From: a bacterium
GTDB lineage: Bacteria > Patescibacteriota > Minisyncoccia > Phycocordibacterales > UBA5272
DNA length: 64,000 nt
Direction of reading: 5' to 3'
Assembly: GCA_023267535.1 (NCBI GenBank)
Contig: JAHFNC010000003.1
Coordinates: 380 to 64,379 of the forward strand
A program made the translations under genes and the position numbers. The notes below the pieces were generated by a model. That model was not told the DNA's origin. It was given only the letters and a program-made list of their open reading frames with translations, and ran no database searches. This document shows positions 17,341 through 51,033 of the stretch, piece by piece (the stretch's first letter is position 1; every line of letters begins with the position of its first letter).

Positions 17341-18429
17341 ATGATGAAAAAGAAAGTGGCCAAGCCACCAAAGATAGTTGGCGCAAAAAGCGAAATCAAA
17401 GACAATAAAGTAAATTCTGATGTCTTACTAAAAGAAATACAAAATAAATTCGGCGAAGGCGCAATGATGAAATTGGGCGATGCTGCCAAAGTAAATGTTG
17501 ACGTCATCCCTACTGGCTCAATTGGTCTTGATTACGCACTCGGTGTCGGAGGATTACCCCGTGGAAGAATTGTTGAAATATACGGACCAGAGTCATCAGG
17601 AAAAACAACTCTCACCTTGCACGTGATTGCTGAGGCCCAAAAAGCTGGCGGACTTTGTGCTTTCATTGACGCTGAACATGCCATGGATCCAGAATACGCC
17701 AAGAAGCTTGGTGTAAAGGTAAATGAACTTTTAATATCACAACCTGATAATGGTGAACAAGCTTTGGAAATTGCTGAGTCAATTGTTAGAAGCGGAAGAG
17801 TAGACGCGCTTGTTATTGATTCTGTGGCTGCCTTAACTCCACGTGATGAAATTGAAGGTGATATGGGGGCTCAACATGTTGGTAAGCAAGCAAGATTAAT
17901 GTCACAAGCCCTTCGTAAGTTAACTGCCATTGCTCACAAATCAAAAACTGTAATTATTTTTATTAATCAAATCAGAATGCAAATTGGTGTTATGTTTGGA
18001 AACCCAGAAACTACCCCAGGAGGAAAGGCACTTAAGTTTTACTCCTCTGTTCGTATCGATATCAGAAAAATTGCTCAAATCAAAAAAGGAGACGACGTAG
18101 TTGGAGCTAGAACCAAAGTAAAAATTGTAAAAAATAAAGTAGCCGCTCCATTTAAATCAACTGAGTTTGATATTATGTATAACGAAGGAATTTCCAGAGA
18201 AGGAGAACTGCTAGCTCTCGGTGAGAAATTTAAATTAGTCACAAAATCAGGGACATCATATTCATATGGTGAAGAAAAATTAGGTCGTGGTTATGATGCT
18301 TCACGAACATTCTTGCGAGAAAATTCAAAAATTGCTAATCGTTTAGAAAAAGAAATTCGTAAACAATTAGAGGCAGGAGGATTGTCGTACGCAGGAAAGG
18401 AAGAAGACGAAGAAGCTCCGACTGAGTAG
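17341..18429 (+). CDS. recA: recombinase RecA
   Basis: [17 protein letters not shown] Walker A, L1/L2 loops, and an acidic C-terminal tail. Confidence 0.97.
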
Positions 18430-20410: not shown

Positions 20411-23125
20411 CTAAATTTGATATTTCTTGAGTATCTCTTGCTCTACCTCTTCTTTCGGTCTGCCAAATTTCAAATAGCTTAATTCTTTTAATTTTTCAAT
20501 ATTTGCAATGTCCCCTTTTGGAGAATTGGAAACGGAAATATCAAACGGCTTTTTCGGTTCGCCATTTACCAACATCTTCACATAAGCGTGGTAGTTTTCT
20601 ATTTTAATAATATCGTTAGCGGTAAATGTTGGGGTAAATTGTGTTTCTAAATATTTAGCATCGTCTGGACCAACACGATAAACAATCATTGAGCCCACGT
20701 TTCCAAACACCGCACCTTTTATATCATCTTGTAATTGTCCGATGTATTGATGAGCGATATTTAACGACATTCTGTATTTTCTGGCTTCGGATAAAATTGT
20801 AGAAATGGCTGAAGTGGTAATATTTTGAAATTCATCAATGTAAAAATAAAAATCAGGTCTGACTGCAGTATCAACTCTAGAAAGGGCTGCTTGTAAAAAT
20901 TTTCCAACAATAATTAGACCAAGTAAATTTGAGTTTACATCTCCTAATCTTCCTTTAGAAAGATTTACTAAGAAGATTTTTTTATTATCCATAATGTCAC
21001 GGAAATTAAAAGATGATTTTTCTTGAGCAATTATTGGACGCATAATGTCGTTTGATATAAAGATATCAAACTTATTGGTGACATATTGTGTCCAGTTTGC
21101 TAGACCCTGCTCACCTGTTGTCTTCTCGGCATTTTGCCAAAATTGTATGAGGATTGGATTTTTTGATTTTGATAATTTGTAATCTCTAAAATCTTTATCA
21201 GAAAATACGCGAGCGATTTCAAGCAAGGTGTTGCCACCTGACTCAGGAGACTCCATTACAAGCAATGTAGCGTTTCTAAAATACTGTTCAAAGCCAGGAC
21301 CACCAGATGTCTTCATATCAAAGAGCTTATTAAATATTCCAAGCAATTCGTTTACAATAAAAGTTTTTTGTTCCGGAAAATTTTTGTCATACTCAAGCAT
21401 ATTTAGTCCCATCGGTCTTTCTATATGACTTGGGTCAAAATAAATAACATCGTCTAATCTCTCTTTTGGTATGTTGGCTAAAATATCTAAAATATCATTA
21501 CCGTGTGGATCAATAAAACAGCAACCATCGCCATTTTTTATATCTTGAATAACTAAATTTTTCAGAATTGTCGTTTTACCGGTTCCAGTCTGACCAATAA
21601 CATAAAGATGTCTCATTCTATCTTCACGAGCAAAGTGAATAACTTGCTCTCCGACGTTTGATTTGTTAATACCTAAAATAACTCCCTCTTGTGGCATATC
21701 TGGCGAAGCACTTCCCGTCGCACTCTTTGACTGCATGATATTATCTAGCCCTCTTTTTTGTGTTGGTATATGATAAATACTAGCTAACTCTTCCAAATTA
21801 AGTGGGCAAGATTCGTCATCACTCCAAAGTCTATAAGAAAATCTGTGTAGCATTGCTTTTTGTTTTCTGCCTTCAACTTCTTTAAATAAAAAGCTATTGC
21901 CGTTTACATTATTAAACTGCATAAACGAGGCTTCCAAGTCTCTTCTAATGTTTTCCGCTCTTTGTAATGAATCAGATGATGCAATAATACGAACATTGGT
22001 CTCCATTATAGTTCTCTCTAATTTTTGTTGGATTAGTTTAGTGGCGATTTCGTCAGTGTGAGTTAATTTATCTTTTTTCTCTTCTTCTTGTTCTTCTTTT
22101 GATTTTGGAGAAGATAACATTGTACCCATAATTCTAAATGACTCTTTCAAAAAGTCCTGCTTATCTAGTGCTCTTTTTAAAGTCTCGCCTTTTCTTAAAT
22201 CATCTAATATTTGTCCATACTTTTTTGAAAAAATATCTCCAGCTGGTCTGACTAAGATTTGAATAGCTAACCCTTCCATATCTTTTCTGATTTTTGTAAA
22301 AGAAGAAATAATTATAGAGAGTGGGTCACCTTCTAATTCTTTATAAGTTTTAATTGGTAGAGCTCCTGTCTTGGAAAGAGTAGCATAAGAACAAGAAGTC
22401 ATCGAATTTTTATGGAAAATATTATAATCTTCTTTGCATTCTGTAATTTGGGCATTCGGGAACACTCCTTGCACCACCTTTTCAAAAATATTTTTATAAT
22501 CAACATGCACAGCGCAATAAAAAGACATCACGGTAGTGCCGTTGGAAACTGATAATTCCAACGAATAATAATTTTTGTCTTTATTAGCTGGGTCAGAAGA
22601 TAGTCCTTGCATAGAGGCATACCACTGTTCCATAAGAGCAATCATTTCTTTAGCTTGCTTTGTTTCCTCTCCGTCTTTTTCTGGAAGAACTATTTGAAAC
22701 AACACAAAGTGAAGCGCTTTCCACTCATCTTTTGACAAATCATTTTTTGGATTAGCGCCAGACAATAAATATTGCACTAAGTATCTTTCAAAATCATCAT
22801 CGATTTGTGGATCATTTAATTTTTCAACTACACTTAGTGCATTTTTAATCCCCTTGTCGGCCATCACCTGAATAATCATTTTTACTTTCTCGTCAGTATC
22901 GCGTGGTGTAAGCCAAGTAAGTAACCTGTGTTCTTCACTGCTGGTAATTCTTTTATCATCTGGAACGAGAACTTCAATTGGAGTTTCTCTAAATTCTCGC
23001 AAGGCTTCGTGGGCATGATTCTTCTCGGTAAATCTATCTTCAAAACCTTTTGCTTTTTCCATTTTTTCGGAAATAGAAGAACGTAAATTGGCAACTTCGC
23101 CCTCTAAAAGATTATCAGTATTCAT
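20411..23125 (-). CDS. TraG/TraD/VirD4-like (FtsK-HerA superfamily) P-loop ATPase, 904 aa, no N-terminal TM
   Basis: C-terminal half has YVIGQTGTGKT Walker A, FYIDEFQN Walker-B-like and an RVGPDD motif typical of T4SS coupling-protein-like ATPases. The N-terminal ~480 aa have no clear match to a known family. Confidence 0.5.
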   Translation of the reverse strand: MNTDNLLEGEVANLRSSISEKMEKAKGFEDRFTEKNHAHEALREFRETPIEVLVPDDKRITSSEEHRLLTWLTPRDTDEKVKMIIQVMADKGIKNALSVVEKLNDPQIDDDFERYLVQYLLSGANPKNDLSKDEWKALHFVLFQIVLPEKDGEETKQAKEMIALMEQWYASMQGLSSDPANKDKNYYSLELSVSNGTTVMSFYCAVHVDYKNIFEKVVQGVFPNAQITECKEDYNIFHKNSMTSCSYATLSKTGALPIKTYKELEGDPLSIIISSFTKIRKDMEGLAIQILVRPAGDIFSKKYGQILDDLRKGETLKRALDKQDFLKESFRIMGTMLSSPKSKEEQEEEKKDKLTHTDEIATKLIQQKLERTIMETNVRIIASSDSLQRAENIRRDLEASFMQFNNVNGNSFLFKEVEGRKQKAMLHRFSYRLWSDDESCPLNLEELASIYHIPTQKRGLDNIMQSKSATGSASPDMPQEGVILGINKSNVGEQVIHFAREDRMRHLYVIGQTGTGKTTILKNLVIQDIKNGDGCCFIDPHGNDILDILANIPKERLDDVIYFDPSHIERPMGLNMLEYDKNFPEQKTFIVNELLGIFNKLFDMKTSGGPGFEQYFRNATLLVMESPESGGNTLLEIARVFSDKDFRDYKLSKSKNPILIQFWQNAEKTTGEQGLANWTQYVTNKFDIFISNDIMRPIIAQEKSSFNFRDIMDNKKIFLVNLSKGRLGDVNSNLLGLIIVGKFLQAALSRVDTAVRPDFYFYIDEFQNITTSAISTILSEARKYRMSLNIAHQYIGQLQDDIKGAVFGNVGSMIVYRVGPDDAKYLETQFTPTFTANDIIKIENYHAYVKMLVNGEPKKPFDISVSNSPKGDIANIEKLKELSYLKFGRPKEEVEQEILKKYQI

Positions 23126-23156: not shown

Positions 23157-23930
23157 TTAATTGAGTTTAGTTAATATCTCAGGCTTGCCATCAGTTATTA
23201 AAATACTATGTTCAAAATGGGCAGAATTTTTATGGTCAGCGGTTACAAAGGTGTAACCATCATCGTCCAAATAAACATCGTCGGTGCCCAGATTTATCAT
23301 TGGCTCAAGAGCTAAAACCATTCCTGAAACAAGTTTCGGTCCTTTTATTCCATCATCAAAATTTGGAACATTTGGCTCTTCGTGAGCTTGAAAACCAACA
23401 CCATGGCCACAAAGGATTTTTACTACTCCATATTTCTTTGGAACTGAATTTCCGATGGCTTTGGATACATCGTTTACATAATTCCCAGCACGACACGCTT
23501 TTATTCCAGAAAATAGCGCTTGTTTGGTCACCTCTAGTAACTTTTTATTTTCATCACTTATTTCTCCAACTGCAACGGTAACTGCCATATCGGAATACAT
23601 TCCATTGTGAACAAGTCCTCCGTCTAATCCGACAATATCCCCTTCCTTCAAAACTCTATCACCGGGAATTCCATGAACAACCTCGTCGTTTACAGAAACA
23701 CAAATACTTCCAGGATATGGATAGTCCGCACCGAACGGTTGGTAATTTAAAAACGATGGTTTGTCACCCCCTTCAATTGTTCTTTGATAAACAAAGTTAT
23801 CAATTTCTTTGGTGGTTATTCCGGGCTTAATTATTTTTTTTAAGTCATCAATAATAAGCGCCAATCTTTTACAAGATTCACGAAGATTTTCTAAATCTTT
23901 TCCAGTTTTTAATCTTATTTCTTTTTTCAT
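23157..23930 (-). CDS. map: methionine aminopeptidase type I
   Basis: Pita-bread fold motifs (…VHGIPGDRVLKEGDIVGLDGG…HGVGFQAHEEP…) and metal ligands. Confidence 0.9.
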   Translation of the reverse strand: MKKEIRLKTGKDLENLRESCKRLALIIDDLKKIIKPGITTKEIDNFVYQRTIEGGDKPSFLNYQPFGADYPYPGSICVSVNDEVVHGIPGDRVLKEGDIVGLDGGLVHNGMYSDMAVTVAVGEISDENKKLLEVTKQALFSGIKACRAGNYVNDVSKAIGNSVPKKYGVVKILCGHGVGFQAHEEPNVPNFDDGIKGPKLVSGMVLALEPMINLGTDDVYLDDDGYTFVTADHKNSAHFEHSILITDGKPEILTKLN

Positions 23931-23934
23931 TTAA

Positions 23935-24531
23935 CTAATTAAATATATCTAATTTGGAAACAATTTCTTTGTGAACATCTTCTATAGTCTGCTCGCCATT
24001 TATTTGTAAAAATTTATATCTGCTATCATTTTTGTAAGACTCAACAACAGGAATTACATCAGTTTCAAACCATTCCATTCTTTTAGCAACACTTTCCGCT
24101 CCGATATCATCTTTTCTTCCTCTGCCTGCCAATCTTTCCTTTGACCAATTTTCGGAAACATCAACATAAATAACATACAACTCTTCGTAGCCGATAAAAC
24201 TAAGAGCGTTATGTAGGACATTGACTTCAAATAACTTTCTTGGAGCACCGTCTAAAATAACAGAATCTTCTTCTTGAACAGTGTTGATGAAAATGTCTGA
24301 CCAATTCCAAATCGCTAAAAATTCTGGTTGAAGTCTGCCGGTTTCATCGGCGTGTCTAGATAAAGTTGAAATAAAAGAATCACCTTTCATAAACTCACGA
24401 AAACCATCTCCAGTTGAGATATGTTTTATATTCACGCCAAAATCAGTCTCAACTTTTTTCTGAAGCAATTCCGCCTGTGTCCCCTTTCCAGAACCAGACC
24501 TGCCAATCATAATAAATAACTTTTTATTCAT
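23935..24531 (-). CDS. adk: adenylate kinase
   Basis: GRSGSGKGTQ P-loop, ISTGD, ILDGAPR and RxDD motifs. Canonical position after secY/map. Confidence 0.8.
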   Translation of the reverse strand: MNKKLFIMIGRSGSGKGTQAELLQKKVETDFGVNIKHISTGDGFREFMKGDSFISTLSRHADETGRLQPEFLAIWNWSDIFINTVQEEDSVILDGAPRKLFEVNVLHNALSFIGYEELYVIYVDVSENWSKERLAGRGRKDDIGAESVAKRMEWFETDVIPVVESYKNDSRYKFLQINGEQTIEDVHKEIVSKLDIFN

Positions 24532-24617
24532 TGCTTTATACTAACAAAAAAACTGATAAATTAAAACCAAGAAAAAACTCCCGCCGAGCGAGAGTTTTTT
24601 ATGTCATTTATATTATT

Positions 24618-27600
24618 TTAATTCCCACAACTAAGTGTTCTGATACTATCTCTAGTTACTTGTCCTACTTGACCTGTAACTATTAAGTTTTTATCTGTTT
24701 GGAATGATTTTACTGATTGTTCTGTTACTTTTCCGAATATTCCTGTTAAATCTTCTTTGAAGTACCCTCTTTCCTTCAAAAATAGCTGAAGTCTGGTTAC
24801 TTCACCACTTGTTTCTTTGTCTGTTATACCTAACGACATATGATTGTTTAGATTGATGCAGATGTTTTTAGTTGAGGCGCCGAGGACCTGACTTTGAGTA
24901 CTTAGTAGTCCTAGGGAAGCATTGTAGGTCCCTGAACAAATAGTAGGACTACTTCCACAAGTCCATTTATAGAGGCCATTAGCTGGTGCCACCGGACTAT
25001 CAGAAGTAAATGTTGGTTGACCACCATTAGCACAATATGTTTTAGAAGCTAATAAGGTTGTACCTACTGTTTGACCATTAAGAGTTCCACAGGGTGAAGC
25101 GACCTCGGGAGAAACAGTTATATTTATGTATTTGTATGAATACAATCCATTTGAATTATTAACACACCTTATTCCAAATTGAGTATTGGTATATAAATTT
25201 ACAGTCGTTGCTGTACCATTTGTTTGTAAAGGCCCACCAGCACCCAAATTACCACCAGCCGCATAACAAGTAACATAAATGATATCAGTTGAAGGTATTG
25301 TTGTAACCGCCCACGTAATCGTGGCTGTACCGCCAAAAGGAATAGTTGTATCAGGAGATAAAGTAATGGTTGGAGCACCTGACTGACTACTTGTTTGATT
25401 TTGTACGTTAACTGTAAAATACTTTGTTATTGGTTGACTGTTTCCATTTACACATCTAATTCCATATTGAGTTGTAGTATATAGATTTGGCGTTGTCCAC
25501 GTACCACTATTAGCAGGAACATCACCAGATGTTAAATTGCCCCCGGCTACTACACAAGTAGATGTTGTTGGTGAGACAATCCACGTTATTGTTGAAGTGT
25601 TACCAAATGAAATTGTATCTGAGTCTTTGGAGAGGGTTATGGTTGGAGAAGTGGCGGTTACACTATTGGCGACAGGCGCAACTGTATTACCTGAAGCTGA
25701 AGGACTAGCTACAACAGTGAAAGTAAATGGGGTCATGCCGGTACACGAAATTACGTTAATACCTACTGATGCGTTACCAGAACCAGGATTAAAGAAACTT
25801 GAAGCAGGGCCGTTGTTCCATGACCATGTACAATTTACTACAGCACCAGAATTACTAAAAAACCATGTCCATGGTAAAAGAGAGCCGTCTGCGGGTGCAA
25901 CTACAGTGTCACCACTAGATATAACATGACCGCCTAAAGTAACTGAAGCAACAGCCCCTGATGAATTACTTGTAGCTTGAGCCCCAACCACAACATTGAA
26001 AGCAAACTGTGTTCCACCAGGACATGTGTATGTATAGCTACCTGCGTTACTACTATTTACTGTACTTGAATAACCGATTTGGTTGTTGAAGTTCGAATTT
26101 GAAACAAGACTACCATTACCGCCAAGAGTACAAGCCATATTACTACCTGAACTAAAGCCGAGTAATACGGAACCGTTGTAAGGAATAGTGACAGTTCCCC
26201 CGTTAGAGACAGAATTGCCGTTTGCGGTGAGTGAAGGTGCGTGGGTTGAGGAAGTTGTAGTGGTGGTGTTAGGACTACTAACAACATATGTAACTCCGTT
26301 TGAGTTTATGGTACTTCCATCTGATTTATGACAAGTAGCTACTTGAGTAAAGGTACCAGACTGTCCTGCTGTGTTTATAGAAATAACACTGTCTGTGATG
26401 GGTGTGACCACACCACTTATAGGCATAGTACAACTACTTGCTCCATTAGAATGGAAAGTTAAATTAACAGTTTGTCCTGCTGTGGGAGTGGTGGTGTTGA
26501 TGCTTAATGTAGGGGCGGTAGTTTGAGAGCCAGTTACAATGGTAAAAGTAAACGGGGTCATGCCGGCACACGAAATTACATTAACTCCTACTGATGCGAT
26601 ACCATAACTAGGACTAGCTAATCTGGTAGGAGAGCCGTTATTCAATGACCAAGTACAATATGTTCCAGCTCCAAAATCCCATGTCCATGCCATAGGAGAA
26701 CCGTCTGCGGGGCCGGCTATGGTATCGCCATTAGAGATAGGATTAGCGTTCAAAGTAACTACTCTTGAGTTACTCGTAGTCTGAGTCCCCGCCACAACAT
26801 TGAAAGCAAACTGTGTTCCACCAGGACATGTGTATGTATAGCTACCTGCGTTACTACTATTTACTGTACTTGAATAACCGATTTGGTTGTTGAAGTTCGA
26901 ATTTGAAACAAGACTACCATTACCGCCAAGAGTACAAGCCATATTACTACCTGAACTAAAGCCGAGTAATACGGAACCGTTGTAAGGAATAGTGACAGTT
27001 CCCCCGTTAGAGACAGAATTGCCGTTTGCGGTGAGTGAAGGTGCGTGGGTTGAGGAAGTTGTAGTGGTGGTGTTAGGACTACTAACAACATATGTAACTC
27101 CGTTTGAGTTTATGGTACTTCCATCTGATTTATGACAAGTAGCTACTTGAGTAAAGGTACCAGACTGTCCTGCTGTGTTTATAGAAATAACACTGTCTGT
27201 GATGGGTGTGACCACACCACTTATAGGCATAGTACAACTACTTGCTCCATTAGAATGGAAAGTTAAATTAACAGTTTGTCCTGCTGTGGGAGTGGTATTG
27301 TCTAGAGTTAAGGTTGGAGTGGTGATTGTGGTTGAGTTAGTGCTAGTTGAGTTAGTGCTGCCTGTACTTACCGCAACTGGAGTTGCACCATGACAAGAAA
27401 GGTACTTAATCTTTGCTCTGGTATATTGAAAAACATTACCACTTTGAGTTAATGGAAATCCTGTACTAGCTAATTGTTGTCTGTCACTAGCGCTTAAAAT
27501 ATTATCTATATCGCTTGCCAAAACATTTGAATACATTTGAGCCTGAAATGCCATTACAGCTTTTTGGGTTATTTTTCCGAAGACTGCCGGTTGGGTATCT

Positions 27601-27839
27601 GATAGTTGAGCATCTGGGAAAAAACCAGTGTCGTTTAAAAATGACTGTAATTTGTATATATCCCCATTAAGAGTTGTGTCTGACTGACCCTTAGAAAGAT
27701 TAGTTGTCAAAGAAAGACAAGTTGGCGTGTTATTTGTATTCGTTGATGTATCCCCTAACAATTGAGCAGAGGAGATGCTCGGGATAACAAAACTAACAAA
27801 AACAACTGAAACCAATATAGATTTAATATTTTTAAACAT
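24618..27839 (-). CDS. giant secreted surface protein (1073 aa) with N- and C-terminal Cys-bounded PG_binding_1-like domains and internal Ig-like repeats
   Basis: Signal peptide MFKNIKSILVSVVF… The C-terminal CINL…TRLQLFLKERGYF…FQTDKNL…SCGN and N-terminal …IYKLQSFLND…FQAQ… are PG-binding-like. The middle contains a perfect tandem duplication. Confidence 0.65.
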   Translation of the reverse strand: MFKNIKSILVSVVFVSFVIPSISSAQLLGDTSTNTNNTPTCLSLTTNLSKGQSDTTLNGDIYKLQSFLNDTGFFPDAQLSDTQPAVFGKITQKAVMAFQAQMYSNVLASDIDNILSASDRQQLASTGFPLTQSGNVFQYTRAKIKYLSCHGATPVAVSTGSTNSTSTNSTTITTPTLTLDNTTPTAGQTVNLTFHSNGASSCTMPISGVVTPITDSVISINTAGQSGTFTQVATCHKSDGSTINSNGVTYVVSSPNTTTTTSSTHAPSLTANGNSVSNGGTVTIPYNGSVLLGFSSGSNMACTLGGNGSLVSNSNFNNQIGYSSTVNSSNAGSYTYTCPGGTQFAFNVVAGTQTTSNSRVVTLNANPISNGDTIAGPADGSPMAWTWDFGAGTYCTWSLNNGSPTRLASPSYGIASVGVNVISCAGMTPFTFTIVTGSQTTAPTLSINTTTPTAGQTVNLTFHSNGASSCTMPISGVVTPITDSVISINTAGQSGTFTQVATCHKSDGSTINSNGVTYVVSSPNTTTTTSSTHAPSLTANGNSVSNGGTVTIPYNGSVLLGFSSGSNMACTLGGNGSLVSNSNFNNQIGYSSTVNSSNAGSYTYTCPGGTQFAFNVVVGAQATSNSSGAVASVTLGGHVISSGDTVVAPADGSLLPWTWFFSNSGAVVNCTWSWNNGPASSFFNPGSGNASVGINVISCTGMTPFTFTVVASPSASGNTVAPVANSVTATSPTITLSKDSDTISFGNTSTITWIVSPTTSTCVVAGGNLTSGDVPANSGTWTTPNLYTTTQYGIRCVNGNSQPITKYFTVNVQNQTSSQSGAPTITLSPDTTIPFGGTATITWAVTTIPSTDIIYVTCYAAGGNLGAGGPLQTNGTATTVNLYTNTQFGIRCVNNSNGLYSYKYINITVSPEVASPCGTLNGQTVGTTLLASKTYCANGGQPTFTSDSPVAPANGLYKWTCGSSPTICSGTYNASLGLLSTQSQVLGASTKNICINLNNHMSLGITDKETSGEVTRLQLFLKERGYFKEDLTGIFGKVTEQSVKSFQTDKNLIVTGQVGQVTRDSIRTLSCGN
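25990..27295 (-). repeat. intragenic tandem duplication, period ~804 nt, with two 100 %-identical ~500-nt copies (about 25990-26492 and 26793-27295)
   Basis: Identical nucleotide runs offset by ~803 nt. The shadow ORFs 26057..26287 and 26861..27091 are identical. The protein repeats …TPTAGQTVNLTFHSNGASSC…FAFNVV twice. Confidence 0.85.
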
Positions 27840-27950
27840 AATGCGATAAATTATTTATAATATATACATTATATCCTTTTATTTAAGGAAAAATTTAAAG
27901 CTATCAACATAGCAAAAACACCCTTTTAGGGTGTTTTTGTTTATATTATT

Positions 27951-30900
27951 TTAATTTCCACAACTTAACGATTTAATTGTATCTCTTGTTACTTGCCCTA
28001 CTTGGCCAGTAACTATTAAGTTTTTATCTGTTTGGAAGGATTTTACCGCACTTTCTGTTACTTTTCCAAATATTCCTGTTATATCTTCTTTAAAGTATCC
28101 TCTTTCTTTTAGGAAGAGCTGAAGTCTTGTTACTTCGCCACTTGTTTCTTTATCGGTTATACCGAGAGACATATGTTGTCCTAGATTAATACAGATGTTG
28201 GATATGGAAGCGCCGTGAACTGCTCCACAAGAGAAAGTTGGCCAGTTAGAAGCATTGGAACAACCATTGCTGTTACAAGCGTGAACCCATGTGGCATAAC
28301 TATGACCAGCCACACCTGCCCAACTGTGTGAGGTAGAAGTTTCATTATTATTACAATAATTTCCTCCATTTTCAGCGGTAGAACAAGTTCCAGTCCAAAT
28401 ACCTGCGGTTGTGTCATTTATTCTTGTTTGATAGAAAGTAGCACCAGATACTGCCCCCCAACTGATAGAAGCGGATGTTCCGGAACAGGACGGTACATTA
28501 CTACCACTGCTAGCTGGTACAGCTGGAATTGAGTTTGTGGCTGGGGCAGGAGCAGATGCCTGAGCTACTGGGCAAGCTCCGTTTACTGGTGTTTGTCCTT
28601 GTGGACATATTGTTGTCGTACATCCTCCGTTATATATTGCTTGACCTTGACCACACACAGCAAGGGTTGCTGTTACAGCAGTAGATATTCCGGTTGAGCC
28701 GTAACAAGTAACAGTTGTAGTTAATCCATTTGGATAACTAGCACCAGAAAGTGTCATTGAATATGTAGCTGGAGCGTTATTCCAAGGACTTGATCCGTCT
28801 GGATGACTCACGTTACAGTAAGATGCGTTTGCAGTCCAGCCGAAAGTGGCACTTTGTGTAGACAAAATTGGTGAAGCGCTAAAGTTTGGTGGAGTAGTAA
28901 AGCTTGGTTGAGTTGGAGCTGTAGTTGTGGTTGTGGTTGTATTAGCTGGTGCGGAAGCTTGAGCTTGAGGACAAGAGAACGCTGGCCAACTAGAACCATT
29001 GGAGCAACCATTGTTGTTACAAGCTTGAACCCATGTAGTATAACTGTGACCAGCTACGCCTGTCCAAGTATGTGGGTTTATTGTGTCATTATTATTACAA
29101 TAATTACCTCCATTTTCGGAAGTAGAACAACTTCCAGTCCAAGTACCGGCTGTTGTGTCATTTATTCTTGTCATGTAGTAAGTGGCGCCAGTCGCTCCTT
29201 GCCAACCAATAGAAGCTGATGTTCCAGAACAGGATCCACTGCTAGTTGGTACAGCTGGAATAGTATTTGTGACTGTGGCAGTTTGTGCTGTAGCGAAATT
29301 AAGACCAAAACTAAATGTTGCTGAGCCAGTAGTGTTGCTACAAGTATAAGTATAAGTACCTATATTAGTTGAAGCTGTAACTGAAGTTGGTGGTGTTCCT
29401 CCATTTACAGAACATGTTCCTTGCCCTCCTGTATTTCCATATGTTATAGAAGCAGTACTACCAGAAGCGATTTGAGCAGTTCCAGAATTAGAAAGAGGTG
29501 TTCCATTTACAGATACTGTTGGAACAGGAAGTGGTGTTGCTTGGGTATTGGCTACCGTAGCAGGAACATTAATTGTCACAGAACTCCAAGAGCTACATAC
29601 GTTGGTTCCAGCATTACATGCTTTTACATAAGCGGTGTGAGATGTTGCAGATGTCGAAGGAGTAAAACTAGAAAGAGGTATTGACCAGCTTGAAGAAGTA
29701 TTTACAGAACCACCAGCACTAGTACCTGCATCAATAGCATTGTAGTAATCAATTCCAGAAACACGTGACCAAGATACCGTGTAATAAGTACTAGTTACTG
29801 ATGTTGTGAGAGCTGGAGCTGTTGGAGCTGTTGTTGTAACAGGATTTGCTTGAGCTGTTCCTAAATTAACAGTGAGCGCTCCACTTGTAAGTAATGTCCC
29901 TATCGAGTTATATACACTTACTGTATATGCCCCTGAAGGAAGGTCGGTCATTGGTGTCCCCGACCAAGAACCATTAGTAACGGTAAGTGGTCCTGATCCT
30001 GCAATCATACTTCCATTATTAGTATTTATGAAGCTGACGTATACAGTTGATACATTGGCTGTTCCAGAAATTAAAGGACGAGCGGTTGAGGCTGTTTGAG
30101 ATTGTTGACTAAGGGTTGTTGAGTTTGTGTTTGTATTTGCAGTTGTTGATGGTTTTGAAACAGTAATATTTGCTATGCCAAGTATTTGTCCGGTACTACT
30201 AACTAAGCGAGCTTGATAAGTATCTGGACTCCTATTGTCACCCATAGAGTTTTGCCATATATATGAATATGTTGCTTGAGATCCCGCTCCAAGAGTTGTG
30301 CATGCTCCGATTGGACTTGTCGGATATGAAGGGTCTGCTACAGAAGAGCATCGATTAGCATTACCACCTGCATACATAAGTGTATAAGGAGAATTTGGTG
30401 CATTTGCTGGCACTGAACTAGAAAATGTAACTGCGAGTGGAGATACTCCCGATACATTTGATGCTGAAAGATATATTTGTGGAACATCTGTCACAGTAAT
30501 TGGACCACTAACTGCTAGCGGTGTTGAATTAGTTACAAGAGACTGAAGACTACAAGTACCACTGGTATTTGAGCTACAACCAGCTGATGTGTATTTGTGA
30601 AGTGTTGCCGTGTAGATTATTGAAGTTTGTAAATTAGCAGTCCTAACAGCTTGAGCCGCTTGATACACATGTGATGCCCCTGCAGTTGTACAAGAAGTTG
30701 CTGAAGTACAACCCGAAGCAATAACTGATGGCGATGAACCATCTCCCCAATCAATAGCGTAAGCTTCGGAGGCAGTGGTTATTTGTAAATTATTTGCAGT
30801 TAGACTAATAGAAAGCGGAGCAGAGCCAGATGGGGCTGACCCAAACGATGTAACTGTAAGCGTTGGAGTGTTACCTGTATTCTGATTCTGGACTTGAGCT

Positions 30901-32438
30901 GATGTAACCGTCATGATAATTGAATTACTTACACCGTTGCCATTTTTAACATTAAGAACATGACTTCCTGGAGCTATAAGTGAAGGAGCAGGACATCCTA
31001 CACCGACAGATGTTCCCTGTAAACCACAACGTGGTGAAGAATACGTTGGCAAAGTAAATGTAATTGCTGTGCCATTTGAAGAAACAGCAATAGGTTGAAT
31101 AGCATAAAGAGTATTTGCTGTAGAAGAATAACCATCTATATAAACAGTGCTGTCTACTGACGTAAACCCTGAACCATTAATTGTGACATTTGTCCCTATA
31201 CTAGCTGATGTTGGAGAAACAGAACTTATTACGGGTGCATTGGTTTGTAAATTACACCCAACTCCAGTAGTGTTAGTTGTCCCACAACTAGCAACGTTTA
31301 CCGTAACTGACGCTTGATTACTTATTCCATTACTATTTGAAACTTGAATATGATATGTTCCATTATAATTTCTTGGAACAACAATTGTGGTTCCACCATT
31401 TGTGGATGGATAATTTACAGTTCCCATACCTGCTCCGTAATTTACTACATTTGAGGCTGGGTCAAACCTAACACCGGTAATTGTAATATTCCCCTGAGAA
31501 TCACTAGTAACGCTAGTGATTTGTGGTGAGGTTGTTGATGTTGTATTACAACCTATTCTGTTATTAAGAGCTCCACAAGCAGTTACATTTACCAGTATTT
31601 GATTACTTAACCCATTACTATTTACAACTTGAACATAATAATTTCCAGCAGTAGTCACTCCTAAATCTGCGGGATCAAAAATAATTATGGTTCCATTAAG
31701 AAGAGATGAGAAATGGAAATTAGTAGTTGCTTTTCCATAAACATTTACTGAGTTTGATATTGGGTCAAAGTGATTACCGATAATAATATATTTACCCGTA
31801 GCTGTTGGTATGCTTGTGGTATTTAATGACATTAAACTTTCTTGAGTATCAGGATAAATTCCAGAAATAACAGGTGCGCTGTTATTCGTTGGGTTTGTTG
31901 GTGGTGTAGGATTGTCTGGTGTTGTAGGATTTACTGGGTTTGCGATACCGCTTGTACCAGTCGGAGTAGCGTTGTGACAAGAAACATAAGCAATCTTTGC
32001 TCTAGTGTAAACTCCAACATAACCAGTATTGCTCAAAACAAATCCAGTAATAGCTAATTGTTGTCTATCACTAGCGCTAGGAATAAGTGTAGTATCTATG
32101 TCATTTACCGAAACATTTGAGTAAACTTGCACCTGAAAAGACTTTACTGCATTTTGAGTTACTCTACCAAAAGCAGAATATTGTTGTGGTTCTAACGAAA
32201 AGAATGGGTTACCACTAGCATCACTACTATTATTTAAAAATGATTGTAATAAAAATATATTACCGTTAGTTGTTGTATCTGATTGGCCTCTAGCAAGGTT
32301 ACTAGTTAATGAGGTACATTGTGAGACAGATGTGCCACCGGTAGCTGTATCACCTAATGTCTGAGCAAAAGACATAACTGGAATTAAAGAGCCGATAAAA
32401 ACAACTGAAACCAATATAGATTTAATATTTTTAAACAT
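27951..32438 (-). CDS. giant secreted surface protein (1495 aa), paralogous at both ends to the 1073-aa protein
   Basis: The first ~45 nt of coding sequence are identical to the 24618 gene (same signal peptide), the upstream ~100 nt are highly similar, and the C-terminal PG-binding domain is ~90 % identical. The interior has IPT/TIG-like units (P.ISS.SP…G..VTI.G.GF) and Fn3-like units (Y.TRINDTTAG.WTG.CS…NYCNNN…ACN.NGCSN). Confidence 0.65.
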   Translation of the reverse strand: MFKNIKSILVSVVFIGSLIPVMSFAQTLGDTATGGTSVSQCTSLTSNLARGQSDTTTNGNIFLLQSFLNNSSDASGNPFFSLEPQQYSAFGRVTQNAVKSFQVQVYSNVSVNDIDTTLIPSASDRQQLAITGFVLSNTGYVGVYTRAKIAYVSCHNATPTGTSGIANPVNPTTPDNPTPPTNPTNNSAPVISGIYPDTQESLMSLNTTSIPTATGKYIIIGNHFDPISNSVNVYGKATTNFHFSSLLNGTIIIFDPADLGVTTAGNYYVQVVNSNGLSNQILVNVTACGALNNRIGCNTTSTTSPQITSVTSDSQGNITITGVRFDPASNVVNYGAGMGTVNYPSTNGGTTIVVPRNYNGTYHIQVSNSNGISNQASVTVNVASCGTTNTTGVGCNLQTNAPVISSVSPTSASIGTNVTINGSGFTSVDSTVYIDGYSSTANTLYAIQPIAVSSNGTAITFTLPTYSSPRCGLQGTSVGVGCPAPSLIAPGSHVLNVKNGNGVSNSIIMTVTSAQVQNQNTGNTPTLTVTSFGSAPSGSAPLSISLTANNLQITTASEAYAIDWGDGSSPSVIASGCTSATSCTTAGASHVYQAAQAVRTANLQTSIIYTATLHKYTSAGCSSNTSGTCSLQSLVTNSTPLAVSGPITVTDVPQIYLSASNVSGVSPLAVTFSSSVPANAPNSPYTLMYAGGNANRCSSVADPSYPTSPIGACTTLGAGSQATYSYIWQNSMGDNRSPDTYQARLVSSTGQILGIANITVSKPSTTANTNTNSTTLSQQSQTASTARPLISGTANVSTVYVSFINTNNGSMIAGSGPLTVTNGSWSGTPMTDLPSGAYTVSVYNSIGTLLTSGALTVNLGTAQANPVTTTAPTAPALTTSVTSTYYTVSWSRVSGIDYYNAIDAGTSAGGSVNTSSSWSIPLSSFTPSTSATSHTAYVKACNAGTNVCSSWSSVTINVPATVANTQATPLPVPTVSVNGTPLSNSGTAQIASGSTASITYGNTGGQGTCSVNGGTPPTSVTASTNIGTYTYTCSNTTGSATFSFGLNFATAQTATVTNTIPAVPTSSGSCSGTSASIGWQGATGATYYMTRINDTTAGTWTGSCSTSENGGNYCNNNDTINPHTWTGVAGHSYTTWVQACNNNGCSNGSSWPAFSCPQAQASAPANTTTTTTTAPTQPSFTTPPNFSASPILSTQSATFGWTANASYCNVSHPDGSSPWNNAPATYSMTLSGASYPNGLTTTVTCYGSTGISTAVTATLAVCGQGQAIYNGGCTTTICPQGQTPVNGACPVAQASAPAPATNSIPAVPASSGSNVPSCSGTSASISWGAVSGATFYQTRINDTTAGIWTGTCSTAENGGNYCNNNETSTSHSWAGVAGHSYATWVHACNSNGCSNASNWPTFSCGAVHGASISNICINLGQHMSLGITDKETSGEVTRLQLFLKERGYFKEDITGIFGKVTESAVKSFQTDKNLIVTGQVGQVTRDTIKSLSCGN

Positions 32439-32716
32439 AGTGCAATTATTATTTATAATATCTACATTATATCCTTTTATTTATCTAAAATTTAAAGCTA
32501 TCAACATAGCAAAAACACCACGAAAGTGGTGTTTTTACAAATCTATACTTGGCTGTCCATTAAACAAAGATATTTAGCGAAATACGAGACACAGTATTAA
32601 GCCAAAAAATGTTTTAGATTTTAATTTTTGGAGAAACACGAGAAGAAGATGTATACAAAATACATTGACTGAGCGTGAGAGGCTCCAAAAAATTAAAAGA
32701 TGAGATATTTTTTGGC

Positions 32717-33979
32717 TTAATACTCGCGCATTGAGAGCTGAGCATCAACCTTTTTAATCAAGTCCAAAATAACTGAAATAGCAATCAAAATAGATGTTCC
32801 GCCAATAGCTACCGCTTTTATTCCTGTCACACCTTGAACAATTAAAGGTAAAACTGCAACGAGTCCCAAGAAAATCGCTCCAAACAGAGTAATTCTTCCC
32901 AAAACTCCACCAATATACTCAGCGGTCATTGCTCCTGGACGGTAACCTGAAATAAAAGCTCCATTTTTCTGTAGATTCTCAGCAGTCTTTTCTGGATCAA
33001 ACATAATAGCCGTGTAGAAATAAGTAAACAAAACCACCAAAATAAAATATGTTGCTCCATAAATCCATTGATTAGCAATCAAATCGTTTATAGTTCTAGC
33101 TAAACTTTGGAGAATACCGTATTTAGATGTTGAGAAAAGTTGCCCAATAAATTGTGGGAAAAGTAAGATTGAGATAGCAAAAATTATCGGCACAACTCCA
33201 GCCTGGTTCAAACGAAGTGGAAGATAGGTAGAAGTATTAAACGTACTTCCCTGGCCTGCTCTTGATTGTCTAGCATAAGTAACCGTAAGAGGTCTTTCGG
33301 CTTCTGTAATAAAGACAATACCAGCAACCACAAGGATAGTAAGAATTAAAATACCTAAAAGCATTGGGATTTGAGAAGCGTCAAAGGTAATAAAGAATTG
33401 CCCAAGTTTATTTGGAAGTGCCGCCACGATACCAGCGAAAATAATAAGAGATACTCCGTTTCCTATACCTCTCTCATTTATTTGCTCACCCAGCCACATC
33501 ATAAGCATTGTTCCTGCAGTGACGATAATGATGTTTGTTATTAAAACCGGCACAGCCATATGTGTAATAACATTTTGCTTCTCAAGTAAAGTAATAAGAG
33601 CGAAACCTTGTAGAATTGCAAAAGGTAAAGTAATTAGTCTGCCGTATTGAACGAATTTCTTTCTTCCAACCTCCCCTTCTTCTTGATACATCTCCTTTAG
33701 TCTTGGAGAAATAACTGTCATAAGTTGCATGATAATTGAAGAAGTAATGTATGGACCAACTCCAAGCATGACAAAAGAAAGCGCTGATAACCCACCGCCC
33801 GCAAAAATATTCAAAAATCCAAAGAAACTGTTCTTTTCTAGAAATTGAGCTAGGTTACTTGCATCTATTCCTGGGATTGGAATAACCGCTAAAAGTCTTG
33901 TAATAAGCAAAATAACGACCACAAATAAAATCCTTGATCTTAAAACAGAATCCGAGAAAATCGCTTTTAAAGTATTCAT
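32717..33979 (-). CDS. secY: preprotein translocase subunit SecY
   Basis: 10-TM SecY family (420 aa), including …LGVGPYITSSIIMQL…. Confidence 0.9.
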   Translation of the reverse strand: MNTLKAIFSDSVLRSRILFVVVILLITRLLAVIPIPGIDASNLAQFLEKNSFFGFLNIFAGGGLSALSFVMLGVGPYITSSIIMQLMTVISPRLKEMYQEEGEVGRKKFVQYGRLITLPFAILQGFALITLLEKQNVITHMAVPVLITNIIIVTAGTMLMMWLGEQINERGIGNGVSLIIFAGIVAALPNKLGQFFITFDASQIPMLLGILILTILVVAGIVFITEAERPLTVTYARQSRAGQGSTFNTSTYLPLRLNQAGVVPIIFAISILLFPQFIGQLFSTSKYGILQSLARTINDLIANQWIYGATYFILVVLFTYFYTAIMFDPEKTAENLQKNGAFISGYRPGAMTAEYIGGVLGRITLFGAIFLGLVAVLPLIVQGVTGIKAVAIGGTSILIAISVILDLIKKVDAQLSMREY

Positions 33980-34036: not shown

Positions 34037-34513
34037 TTACTTTGTAGACACCCATCTTGCACTCCTTGTGCCAGCATCTTTTAATATCCAATTAGCAGGT
34101 GTACCTTGTTTCTTTTGGTCTTTATCTCCGTAATACCAACCTTTCGCTTGATCTTCCGCTGTAAATTGATTCATAGCAGTATTTGAACCTGTATTTTGAT
34201 CTGGCATAACTGTAGCTACCCATCTTGCACTTTTTGTTCCAGCATCTTTTAACACCCAACCAACCGGAGTTCCTTGTTTCTTTTGGTCTTTATCTCCGTA
34301 ATACCAACCTCTGGCTTTATCCTCTGCTGTAAATTGACCTGCTGTGTTTGTAACCTCTGTATTTTGCCCAGTTGTGGTTGCAACAATTGCGGTTGATGTT
34401 GGCGCAGGCGGAGTATTTGAAACTATTGGAGTGTTACCTAATAAACCAGAAAATAAAGCCACGATGCTAGCAAAAAAAGATAATATTGTGTTCATATAGT
34501 TAAATTCTATCAT
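34037..34513 (-). CDS. small secreted protein with two tandem ~50-aa repeats (158 aa)
   Basis: Signal/TM segment, then QFTAEDKARGWYYGDKDQKKQGTPVGWVLKDAGTKSARWV duplicated. The DNA shows ~150-nt direct repeats. Confidence 0.5.
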   Translation of the reverse strand: MIEFNYMNTILSFFASIVALFSGLLGNTPIVSNTPPAPTSTAIVATTTGQNTEVTNTAGQFTAEDKARGWYYGDKDQKKQGTPVGWVLKDAGTKSARWVATVMPDQNTGSNTAMNQFTAEDQAKGWYYGDKDQKKQGTPANWILKDAGTRSARWVSTK

Positions 34514-34541
34514 ATTGAAATAAAATTAAAAGAAAAGAAAA

Positions 34542-34564
34542 GAGCGACGCCGTAGGCGTCGCTC
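34542..34564. terminator. GCGACGCC-GTA-GGCGTCGC family terminator (downstream of the 1511-aa gene)
   Basis: aaaagagcgacgcc-gta-ggcgtcgctctttt, a perfect hairpin. Confidence 0.7.
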
Positions 34565-34583
34565 TTTTTATAATTATTTTTTA

Positions 34584-37500
34584 TTAATTACACGAATCAT
34601 GTTTAATCGCCTGTCTAGTAAAGTCATAGACCATACCTGTCTCTGGGAGATTAATACTTTTTTGATATTCTTTTACGGCTTCAACTGTAGAGTCCCCATA
34701 GAATCCAGTTGGAGTATCGTACAAAAATCCTTTTTGTACCAAAAACTTTTGAAGTAAAAGAACTTTTGGTGACTCTGCTCCTCGGTGAATATTGGTGGTT
34801 AAATCTACACAAGATGCCTCTACACCAAGAACCTGTGGAGGATAATCTCCAATAACTAAAGGTTTAGTGTCTGGGATTGAACTCTGAGAATTGGATTTAC
34901 ATTTATCAGACAATGTATCAAAATGGCTTCCTGTTACACACTGAGCTGTTACAGTTTGAGTCCCAGCTAATTCAGATGACCCATTCATTAGATGAAAAGT
35001 ATATACTCCTGGCCTAATACCAATTAATGTATTTTTGTCTGGGTAAAAAGAGGTTACAATGCCATATGTGTTATCAGAACCAGATGTGTAATAGTTTACT
35101 TGTGCAGTATTTACTGTAGTATTCCATGCAACAGTCACATTACAGGTATTATATCCAACTGAAACTGTACAAGAGGTTGGTGTTACAGACAAGCTTCCTG
35201 TTGGAGTAGATACAGCAGATGATCCAGTTGCTGGACCATTTATAAATACCATAGTAGATGTTACTGGGGCAGACTTAACACCATAAGTATTTTTTACAAC
35301 CACAGTAGAAGTAACTGTACAACCGTAAAATGAGGCGTCGTTTACAGCACCCGAATCTGTTCCACTAGGTGAATTACCAAACGGTATCCAGTTATTAACA
35401 GTTCCAGCATGAGAACAATTCTGTCCTGCATTTGACGAGAAAACAACATTTGAAGAATCATCAATCGCGCTAGCGTTCTGACTTGTTATTTGTAATGAGT
35501 GAGGCTTTAATGGATCCTGTCCTGTAGCATAAGATGTTCCATTCCAAAGAACTGCTGTTACTACTGGAGTAGGAGCTGCAGTTACTTGAGATGTGTCTAA
35601 TACTGTTCCAGCAAGATAACAGCCAAACACTTTCCATGTTGTTGAAGTTAAATCAAGAGCACATGTTACACCTGACATAGATACAGGACAGCTGTCTCCT
35701 TCATTTGGTGTGGTTGTAACAACTGAAGCACAAGACTTAGTGGCAAAAGGTCCTGTCTTATCTCTTCCGTAAGGACTACTATTTTGTGTTGATTGCCAAT
35801 TATAGACACCGTTTACTAAATTAAGTATAGCTGTTGCTACATTTGTTGGATCTGACTTTCTACGAAGAGAATAAACTACACTTGTAACATTGGTTGCATA
35901 ACTATTGTAAGCTACAGTAGCTGTGTGGCCCCATTGATTAAATACAAATGGATATGGATTTCCTGCTTGGGTGTACGTAGTATAGTCATAGAAATTTGTA
36001 CATGTAGTGGCATTTGACGCCATACATATTTGTAAATCATTATTTGTTATGTCATTTTCCCAGTCGTTATTCACAGTAAAGATGACTGTTCTACCGCCTT
36101 CTTTTGGTAAATTTTGAGAAGATGGAGTGATTGTAAGTGGTTGTAATTTTTTCATTGTCCAAGTTGCCTGAGTGCCACTTGCCGTTAATCCCATACGAAG
36201 TCCTGTCTCGTAACCTGCCTTTTTATGAAACCAAGCAAAGTCACGACTAAAGCCTCCATCTGTAAAACTCCAATTACCAGATGAGTCCGTTGAAGTATCT
36301 AAAGCGAAAGTTGTAGGACCAGCCTTGTAAACAGTAACGGTAACTCCACCAAGACCATTTCCATTTTCATCAATAACTTTACCAGAATACGGCACAGGAA
36401 TATTTGGATGAGTAGTAGCCCATGTAGTCCAATCAATAATCCCAGTTGTAGGAGGAGGTGTTGATGTATTAAGACCAGCCGTAGCTTGAATTGAAGATGG
36501 ATAACTTATTAGATTAGCGGCATTTGTGGCTGTTAGTGTACAACTGTAGTGATATCCAGATATAAGATTATTTACTACAATTGGCGAAGACTGGCTGGTA
36601 GCAGATTGAGTATCAGCAATATTGGCCGCCGTGCTTATGTTACGACAACTAGCATTATAAGAAGTGATAGGAGAACCACCGTTATTTAGAGGTACAGCAA
36701 ATGTAATTGTGGCACTATCTCTAAGGGATGTAGCTGTATCATTTCTAGTAACTCTAGTAATTGTTGGAGCACCTGGAGCAGTTGCTGATTGAGAACTTGA
36801 ACAGACTCCATTGTTTATGGTTTGTCCTGGATTACAAACAATAAGAGTATAACTAGGCGCAGAAGCTAAATCTGAAGAAGGAGTTCCATTAGCGCTGTAA
36901 CAAATAAGTTTTCTACTATAACCTGATGCCATTTGACCACCCATAGCCCCTGTTGCCCAAGAGTATGATGTGTTTGAACTATTTGTCCAGTAAGAAAGAG
37001 GAGTAGCTGGATTATTTCCAGCATTAAAGAGAGTACAAGTAACAGCACCATTAGAACTGTAATTTACAGCAGCGCTCGGTGAATTGTATGCAATTGTTGC
37101 TTGAGGAATTGACCATGAAGCAGATGGAGCTGTTCCCTGTGGTGCGGCTTTAAATGTAACTGCTAGTGTCTTTGAGGTGGTCTGTCCTCCCGGGCTGGTT
37201 ACTACGTAAGTAAGAGTGTTGGTGCATCCATACTTAGCAGTTCCTGGAATCGCTGTGTCGGAGCCAGATGCTCCACTCATAGCGGTATTACCTGTTGTTA
37301 TCCAAGGAGTCCAATTAGTTGTTATATCACTACTACCGCACACCAATCTAGATGATAATACCCCTGTTGATCCAGTTGGTGTTGCACTCCATGACCATAC
37401 ACGAGATACTAATGGGTCTACATTTGTTTGATTAGTTGAAAAACTATTGAAAGTTAAAGTTGCGCTTGGCGCTACAGGAGTAACAGCATTTTGACAACTT

Positions 37501-50901: not shown

Positions 50902-50984
50902 ATTTTTATGTTATTCACTAATAATTGTAGCTGTGTACAGTGTAACAAATATAGAAAATCTTTTATCCACTTGTGTGGACAACA

Positions 50985-51018: not shown

Positions 51019-51033
51019 TATTCTAAAAAATAT

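Follow-up and report, generated by a model that had tools for sequence, protein, structure and literature searches.

Tandem giant genes in a Paceibacteria ribosomal-protein operon probably encode surface proteins that evolve by duplication, module shuffling and gene conversion

Introduction

The 64-kb window analysed here, a stretch of 64,000 nucleotides (nt) from contig JAHFNC010000003.1 of the assembly GCA_023267535.1 of an uncultured bacterium, contains two neighbouring giant genes, A and B, whose ends are alike and whose middles are not. An initial annotation of the sequence took this layout, together with a perfect repeat of about 500 nt inside gene A, for that of cassette-based surface-protein variation. 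The question raised by the locus is whether it holds a system for programmed switching, or whether the processes by which surface proteins ordinarily evolve would be enough to generate the same pattern. Little is known of how the ultra-small bacteria of the candidate phyla radiation (CPR) form their surface and keep contact with partner cells, and the locus supplies candidate coat or attachment proteins.

We consider it probable that A and B are tandem paralogues belonging to a family of Sec-exported surface proteins of Paceibacteria (CPR), and that this family evolves by duplication, module shuffling and gene conversion. The features that had been flagged are those of ordinary surface-protein evolution, not of programmed switching, and they give no evidence of a new variation mechanism. 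In the following, A, B and C are gene labels, positions are those of the window, and dS and dN stand for synonymous and nonsynonymous divergence.

Predicted architecture of the two proteins

Both giant open reading frames (ORFs) of the initial annotation are present where it had placed them, but they run on the minus strand (Table 1). NCBI has the same protein as that of gene A under P0001, encoded on a contig of 142.5 kb. Both proteins begin with a typical Sec signal peptide, judged by inspection, of the form MFKNIKSILVSVVF...(A/F)AQ. In B the signal peptide precedes an N-terminal module that is an extended version of PG_binding_1; approximately 1250 amino acids (aa) of predicted immunoglobulin-like (Ig-like) modules make up the core, and a PG_binding_1 domain closes the protein at its C terminus. 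Gene A has the same end modules around another core, which consists of two 268-aa three-domain units, two additional repeated segments of approximately 95 aa and one small segment rich in cysteine.

The C termini match PG_binding_1 (PF01471) with 63.4 bits in A and 55.4 bits in B, where the Pfam cutoff is 23, and a second PG_binding_1 stretch is reported by Pfam at the N terminus of A. The N-terminal module is helical and resembles PG_binding_1, except for an insert of approximately 40 aa that is specific to the family, and an AlphaFold2 model based on a 17-sequence alignment gives it four helices with a predicted local distance difference test (pLDDT) score of 82. In a Foldseek search the best PDB matches of this model were the peptidoglycan-binding domains of SleC and the AP3 endolysin (probabilities 0.97-0.99), EpsAB (0.30) and YcbB (0.23), all of them weak by E-value (0.085 or worse) and with TM-scores of 0.39-0.45. 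Each end module is bracketed by an invariant cysteine pair of its own, and both modules may bind the peptidoglycan of the cell wall. There is neither an LPXTG motif nor a hydrophobic tail or membrane anchor at the C terminus of A or B, both of which end in ...LSCGN directly after PG_binding_1, and no SLH domain was matched by Pfam in either protein.

The cores are rich in T, S, N and G and contain cysteines. The AlphaFold2 model of the 268-aa unit of A (pLDDT 66) is all-beta and falls into three blocks, and its structural matches in Foldseek are all tandem Ig-domain arrays, including the grappling-hook protein GhpA and an S-layer protein. Comparison of core pieces with Pfam at E <= 1 returned nothing above threshold, the weaker hints including PKD and Big_13. 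When full-length A served as query in a homology search, the only matches were A itself, B and two weak ones, while the 268-aa unit alone recovered nothing, not even A, so that such a search is insensitive for a composition this biased. Each protein would thus carry a wall-binding domain of the PG_binding_1 type with its cysteine pair at both ends and a T/S/N/G-rich string of Ig-like domains between them, and could serve as an adhesin or as a fibre of the surface coat.

Conserved ends and unrelated cores

The initial annotation described the 3' ends of the two genes as alike, and they are 85% identical over approximately 260 nt and 88% identical in amino acid sequence over the last 89 aa; the homology ends approximately 14 nt past the stop codon. 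It had missed that the N-terminal 160 or so residues are homologous as well, at 58% amino acid identity. By the Nei-Gojobori method, the N-terminal domain has between A and B a dS of 1.40 and a dN of 0.35, and the C-terminal domain a dS of 0.94 and a dN of 0.10. Because dS is this high and dN is lower, the coding ends are old, have been kept alike by purifying selection and have not been exchanged recently; recent gene conversion, which was considered as the cause of their similarity, is ruled out by the dS values. The ends would carry functions in export, anchoring and regulation, and in our reading they are functional modules common to both genes, not handles for programmed cassette exchange.

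The upstream regions, reported to be near-identical, share 92.8% of their positions over 125 nt, including a perfect block of 33 nt, and the first 42 nt of the coding sequences are the same, close to the 45 nt or so claimed for an identical start with the same signal peptide. Conservation of this 5' module takes the form of perfect blocks parted by variable positions and, together with the first 14 codons, goes far beyond what synonymous sites retain, so that we read it as a putative shared regulatory and translation-initiation module. A 35-nt promoter-like motif within it occurs in the window only at the 5' modules of A and B, with zero occurrences expected by chance. A metagenome scan with the first 28 nt of the coding sequence gave no matches.

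The hairpin between B and A, whose 3' half opens the shared 5' module, is the predicted terminator of B. It was reported by the terminator scan on the plus strand, and its palindromic stem should form in the minus-strand transcript as well. A matching hairpin lies upstream of B, with the stem kept and the bases of the stem top and loop changed; the hairpin that follows A is unrelated in sequence to the B terminator. Terminator hairpins were the only usable output of the combined sigma-70 and terminator scan, and the shared module and its hairpins may function as promoter and terminators. The limits of the A/B homology, at the upstream hairpin on one side and approximately 14 nt past the stop codon on the other, fit a tandem duplication of a hairpin-promoter-gene unit. 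The pair would accordingly have arisen by duplication of a unit made up of hairpin, promoter, gene and approximately 14 nt, inserted at the junction of secY and adk.

The centres of the two genes had been called unrelated, and indeed BLASTP gives no significant alignment of the cores under composition correction. Without that correction the identity is only approximately 27%, which is due to the shared T/S/N/G-rich composition. The core of B resembles a gene from a different genome more than it resembles that of A: residues 520-770 and 1060-1260 are 75% and 71% identical in amino acid sequence to the gene at L007:3679-7719, with a dS of 0.85-0.89. This L007 gene sits at the rplO-secY junction of its genome. 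In their C-terminal domains, B and the L007 protein share only 42% identity, and the N-terminal peptidoglycan-binding domain of the L007 protein is of a short standard type and not the extended module. The secY genes of the two genomes differ by a dS of approximately 2.2, which is saturated. These values hint that modules of surface proteins have been exchanged laterally among lineages; parts of the B core would be orthologous to the L007 gene. Ends that are alike around different cores within one genome, and cores that are sometimes more alike than the ends between genomes, point to the shuffling of modules, possibly accompanied by lateral exchange, and the cores may generally change by domain duplication and mosaic replacement.

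A perfect repeat within gene A

The perfect repeat that had been noticed in gene A measures 505 nt, and the two copies are 100% identical at an offset of 804 nt, or 268 codons. As had been claimed, divergence is abrupt: in a base-by-base alignment the identity falls sharply at both edges. On the 3' side of the tract (in gene orientation) approximately 280 nt of weaker homology, of approximately 60-75%, follow with two indels, the identity being patchy and ranging over 60-93%. The whole repeated unit is therefore approximately 804-825 nt long, and only 505 nt of it are perfect. The tract corresponds to domains 1 and 2 of the three-domain unit, its 3' edge falling in the linker between domains 2 and 3. 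The third domains of the two units, that of unit 1 lying in the spacer between the perfect copies and its counterpart at approximately 25700-25987, differ by a dS of 0.48 and a dN of 0.29, and within the tract there is not a single difference.

With third domains that have diverged to this extent and a tract that is identical, the duplication of the whole unit would be old and the homogenisation recent. The suggestion that very recent homologous recombination lies behind the repeat is thereby supported, and the best reading of the 505-nt tract appears to be recent gene conversion acting on an older 268-aa tandem duplication. A three-domain unit would have been duplicated long ago, and a conversion tract covering exactly two domains would later have made part of it uniform again.

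Four contigs from independent short-read assemblies show that the boundaries of the repeat are real. Position 27156, where the ENA megahit contigs L081 and L082 (k=141) both end, lies exactly 141 nt inside the upstream copy, and position 26128, the start of the ENA contig L084, is likewise 141 nt away from the boundary of the downstream copy. The Logan contig L085 (k=31) starts at 26017, 30 nt inside the downstream copy. Since on either flank the contigs run into the repeat for exactly k or k-1 nt and stop there, each end of the repeat has two neighbours in the reads, as expected of a repeat-unique-repeat (R-U-R) arrangement. Alleles with one, two or three units share all junction k-mers. With recA present at 17341-18429, RecA could plausibly act on the 505-nt direct repeat to remove or add 804 nt (268 aa) in frame, and A may vary in length at present.

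Older intragenic duplications occur in gene C, encoded elsewhere in the operon (37110-37913 vs 38238-39044, 80% identity), in gene B (28227-28490 vs 28971-29234, 82%, in FN3-like Cys-rich modules) and in a 158-aa ORF upstream of secY (34043-34198 vs 34211-34366, 83%). None of these has been homogenised as the repeat in A has.

Location in the operon and related proteins

Genes A and B lie between secY and adk within a ribosomal-protein operon. The window is part of the chromosome of a member of the Paceibacteria (CPR). The closest SecY among GTDB species representatives is 76% identical and belongs to metagenome-assembled genomes labelled Nomurabacteria and Paceibacterota. The str-S10-spc ribosomal-protein superoperon, on the minus strand at 20411-63919, has non-ribosomal genes at five junctions at least. 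Between fusA and tuf there are a 400-aa zinc-ribbon ORF and a 195-aa ORF, between rplX and rplE a 199-aa ORF, between rplE and rpsN four ORFs of 493, 193, 948 and 1719 aa, and between rplO and secY the 1511-aa gene C, with a C-terminal PG_binding_1 domain, as well as the 158-aa ORF mentioned above. The inserted genes are flanked by terminator-like hairpins in the terminator scan. Four genes inserted in the superoperon encode secreted proteins of 948-1719 aa.

Across 69 related loci with both genes, the secY-adk distance ranges from 28 to 8132 bp, with a median of 573 bp, and is at least 1 kb in 21 of them. The cargo differs from locus to locus and is unrelated. As the gap varies in size and its content is unrelated, the secY-adk junction is a recurrent insertion site, and the locus is a clear example of operon junctions being used in this way. 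In related Paceibacteria the same operon junctions hold giant proteins with peptidoglycan-binding domains, toxin-like genes, kinases and restriction-modification systems.

An exhaustive HMMER search with the N-terminal module found 172 representative proteins, 22 of them at E <= 1e-10 (349-1495 aa). Many of the matches also carry a C-terminal PG_binding_1 domain, and core modules common to one another in shuffled order. Using hidden Markov models (HMMs) built from the N- and C-terminal modules, we found proteins of 850-1590 aa with a peptidoglycan-binding domain at each end between rplO and secY in loci L001, L002, L005, L007, L012, L029, L031 and L056. Upstream of rplO, these loci repeatedly encode a protein of approximately 450 aa whose N terminus holds a PG_binding domain, and this protein matches the 493-aa gene that the window holds between rplE and rpsN. 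Three more family members, found irrespective of context, adjoin rpsL, lie between fusA and secY, and lie upstream of rpsN-rpsH. The layout of end, core and end is thus a trait of a whole protein family in Paceibacteria.

The architecture is easily recognised, as a signal peptide is followed by a Cys-bracketed peptidoglycan-binding domain, a variable Ig-like rod (as predicted) and a second Cys-bracketed peptidoglycan-binding domain. It recurs in one clade of Paceibacteria, repeatedly at junctions of an otherwise conserved ribosomal-protein operon. We found no description in the literature searched of insertions in the ribosomal-protein operon of CPR/Patescibacteria, nor of a Cys-bracketed PG_binding_1 domain at both ends of a protein, of an orphan core like that of A, or of a clade-wide location at operon junctions.

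Table 1. Features of the A/B locus, with positions in the 64-kb window
Feature	Position	Strand	Evidence or content
Gene A, 1073 aa	24618..27839	minus	ORF and translation; Pfam PG_binding_1 63.4 bits, two stretches
Gene B, 1495 aa	27951..32438	minus	ORF and translation; Pfam PG_binding_1 55.4 bits
5' module of A	27798..27922	minus	3' half of hairpin, AT-rich promoter-like block with GATATAAT, 5' untranslated region, first 42 nt of coding sequence
5' module of B	32397..32519	minus	paralogous copy of the A module
N-terminal module of A, Cys41-Cys149	27393..27719	minus	family alignment, AlphaFold2, Foldseek
N-terminal module of B, Cys41-Cys154	31977..32318	minus	family alignment
C-terminal PG_binding_1 of A, Cys994-Cys1071	24627..24860	minus	Pfam
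C-terminal PG_binding_1 of B, Cys1416-Cys1493	27960..28193	minus	Pfam
Repeat unit 1 of A, aa 175-442	26514..27317	minus	three predicted Ig-like beta-sandwich domains (AlphaFold2, Foldseek)
Repeat unit 2 of A, aa 443 to ~722	25674..26513	minus	alignment, divergence
Perfect repeat, upstream copy (gene orientation)	26792..27296	minus	first two predicted Ig-like domains of unit 1
Spacer between perfect copies	26493..26791	minus	diverged third Ig-like domain (predicted) of unit 1, and linker
Perfect repeat, downstream copy	25988..26492	minus	self-alignment
Hairpin between B and A, terminator-like	27911..27941	minus	terminator scan; 3' half opens the shared 5' module
Matching hairpin upstream of B	32511..32536	minus	alignment and sequence; stem kept, stem-top and loop bases differ
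Hairpin after A, intrinsic-terminator-like	24572..24600	minus	terminator scan; sequence unrelated to B terminator
secY, upstream neighbour	32717..33979	minus	Pfam SecY, E = 5e-99
adk, downstream neighbour	23935..24531	minus	Pfam ADK
map, after adk	23157-23930	minus	Pfam Peptidase_M24

Alternative explanations

Conserved ends around unrelated cores are what would be expected of programmed cassette-type antigenic or surface variation, in which the ends of A and B act as recombination handles and the cores are swapped at high frequency. The nearly identical 5' module with its perfect blocks of 33 and 42 nt, the mosaic history of B and the nearby recA would also suit such a system, yet we regard it as very unlikely. 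A dS of 0.94-1.40 argues that nothing has recently been exchanged through the coding ends, and neither gene is truncated: a promoter-like module, a start codon, a signal peptide and a terminator are present in each, so that they could be expressed independently. Silent cassettes, which the initial annotation had proposed to look for, are absent from the window, where self-BLASTN and TBLASTN reveal no silent or promoterless copies of cores or ends, and none of the ORFs scanned was identified as a dedicated recombinase. The end-core-end layout is also found across the protein family in related genomes. Gene B is 100% identical in three independent assemblies, together with its flanks in contigs L081 and L082, and in L083 apart from an artefact of the graph path. 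L083, a 4629-nt contig of Logan run SRR14366791, joins an A-type 5' module to the body of B (equivalent to window 27893-32396 plus 27798-27922) and could be mistaken for an A-upstream/B-body recombinant. We rejected that candidate because the contig is a closed k=31 cycle with a terminal overlap of 30 nt (k-1); the cycle of 4599 nt equals one period of the tandem duplication, in which true adjacencies are joined at the 42-nt shared block, and L083 is most likely an assembly path artefact. Old ends, complete genes, no silent copies in the window, a B that is invariant in three assemblies and a family-wide layout do not support the claim of cassette-based variation. A diversity-generating retroelement or another form of targeted hypermutation acting on the cores is an exceedingly remote prospect, and the initial annotation had already thought a retroelement improbable. 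Beyond the presence of variable surface proteins nothing speaks for it, and for the window it is excluded, as the scanned ORFs contain no match to a reverse transcriptase (RVT), no pair of template and variable repeats with adenine-specific mismatches is found, and the cores differ in domain content instead of at scattered sites.

The perfect repeat could also be a product of assembly, either through expansion or because two copies that had diverged were collapsed to a single consensus. It is spanned by no assembly other than the 142.5-kb NCBI contig, every short-read assembly breaks at it, and the exact A protein comes from one source only, an exact look-up in the contig index having returned none. 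On both flanks, in two ENA assemblies and two Logan runs alike, the breaks nevertheless lie at a depth of exactly k (141) or k-1 (30) nt in the repeat, and it would be odd for an artefact to have an offset that is an exact multiple of 3 (268 codons), edges at predicted domain boundaries and flanking third domains that are truly diverged paralogues, so that we hold this explanation to be quite improbable. A different origin for a real repeat would be a very recent segmental duplication of two domains, by which a 505-nt piece was inserted between two pre-existing paralogous third domains. The sharp edges of the tract and its extent of exactly two domains would be accounted for, but the insertion would have to be in register and precisely at a domain boundary. 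The short linker preceding each copy is homologous too (PTLTLDNTTPT vs PTLSINTTTPT), and the patchy 60-93% identity of the third domains fits repeated conversion within an older duplication of the whole unit, which makes a segmental insertion unlikely.

Several points weigh against the explanation that we favour, that of paralogues evolving by duplication, shuffling and gene conversion. The sigma-70 promoter scan gave no more matches than in shuffled sequence. The 92.8% identity of the 5' module could stem from short-tract gene conversion and not from constraint, in which case some exchange between A and B may be ongoing. The lower dS between the B core and L007 than between the secY genes may partly reflect saturation or codon-usage effects. 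For the 223 nt in the centre of the repeat, a single assembly shows the two copies to be identical. The cores have no significant match in Pfam, the fold of the A core depends on a model with a pLDDT of 66 built from only two sequences, and this core has no detectable homologue in the full-length and unit searches, the latter being insensitive. A more far-reaching proposal would be that the double-ended proteins are cell-to-cell tethers, with one end in the CPR wall and the other in the peptidoglycan of a host, an interchangeable Ig-like rod that sets reach and specificity and to which the 505-nt repeat adds in-frame variation of length, and a functional reason for the operon-junction location, such as coupling to growth or to the supply of SecY. 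We think this improbable as a whole.

Comparison with known systems

Nucleotide-identical tandem repeats, intragenic recombination and in-frame size variants are known from surface proteins of Gram-positive bacteria, such as alpha C and Rib of group B streptococci, Aap/SasG, Esp and Bap. Gene A resembles alpha C/Rib and Aap/SasG in having a signal peptide and tandem units, predicted to be beta-sandwiches, that are in part identical at the DNA level. It differs from them in having only two units with 505 of 804 nt identical, and A and B also lack the LPXTG sortase signal, for which a predicted non-covalent anchoring through PG_binding_1 at both termini stands instead.

Cassette loci such as pilE/pilS of Neisseria, vlsE of Borrelia and msp2 of Anaplasma have conserved segments around the variable middle of a surface protein. 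A and B share this outline with them, but are full genes with anciently diverged ends, have no silent cassettes in the window and, for B, show no variants in three assemblies. The LigA and LigB proteins of Leptospira are paralogous Ig-like adhesins and lipoproteins that have a long, nearly identical N-terminal half and then diverge. A and B are likewise paralogues in which a conserved terminal region gives way to divergence, whereas they share short end modules only, at a much lower identity. With SleC, the phage AP3 endolysin and YcbB the two proteins have in common that their ends match PG_binding_1 (PF01471) and that the N-terminal module matches those folds. In contrast to these enzymes, the modules of A and B flank what is predicted to be a non-enzymatic Ig-like rod and not a catalytic domain, the N-terminal module has its insert of approximately 40 aa, and invariant cysteines bracket both modules.

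In Apilactobacillus kunkeei the consecutive genes Giant1-5 encode very large extracellular proteins in a small genome, and diversify through short intragenic recombination tracts and exchange between lineages (PMC12863079). A and B are also consecutive genes for very large, presumably extracellular proteins in a small genome, and may likewise diversify through short tracts of recombination and exchange between lineages, but the A. kunkeei proteins are larger (3000-8000 aa), have N-terminal beta-solenoids, do not carry PG_binding domains at both ends and are not encoded in a ribosomal-protein operon. Closer in taxonomy are the large (>1500 aa) beta-sheet repeat proteins of Parcubacteria/OD1, which were noted in the relevant passages of one study as adhesin-like, with a proposed role in attachment to a partner cell (PMC4508563). 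Going by those passages, A and B are similar in being large, beta-rich and internally repetitive and in coming from the same phylum-level group; the passages make no mention of double-ended peptidoglycan-binding domains, a tandem pair or an operon location. The behaviour of A and B thus matches that of known surface proteins with identical tandem repeats and of paralogous adhesin clusters, and what sets them apart is the Cys-bracketed PG_binding_1 domain at both ends, the orphan core of A and the clade-wide location at operon junctions.

Other features of the window

Upstream of B there is an inverted repeat (32593-32629 and 32688-32724) with 37-nt arms that are 86% complementary and a 58-nt spacer, one arm overlapping the stop codon of secY. 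It is probably a large 3' hairpin. The possibility of an invertible promoter was set aside in view of the 58-nt spacer, the arm over the secY stop codon and the failure to find a recombinase. Directly downstream of map is a gene for a 904-aa VirD4/TraG-like coupling ATPase (20411-23125, minus strand) with TrwB_AAD_bind and TraG-D_C matches, given as DUF8128 in the contig annotation. A 1040-aa secreted protein (9827-12949, minus strand) has a weak N-terminal PG_binding_1 match and lies near a YkuD L,D-transpeptidase-like protein (6644-7585, plus strand); the two would fit an envelope centred on peptidoglycan.

The 23S rRNA gene (1418-5431, minus strand) is 4014 nt long compared with a model of 2925 nt. 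Relative to E. coli (Ec) rrlH it has insertions of approximately 370 nt (Ec 1163-1245), 265 nt (Ec 1702-1770) and 325 nt (Ec 2593/2594), none of which contains an ORF of at least 120 aa. The 5S gene is at 1039-1148, and there is no tRNA gene in the window.

A dispersed element of 76 nt is present at 3067-3142, 54148-54216 and 63386-63461 in copies that are 80-90% identical. It folds as one long hairpin with six compensatory pairs among the three copies, and matches no Rfam family. One copy is located in a 23S insertion, and the other two border genes inserted in the ribosomal-protein operon on their upstream side, one following rplX and the other fusA. A repeated palindrome resembling a terminator, with the sequence GCGACGCC-TAC/GTA-GGCGTCGC and flanking A/T runs, occurs at 5809-5835, 34538-34568, 39201-39231, 50977-51021 and 63279-63305, and recurs at the borders of inserted genes.

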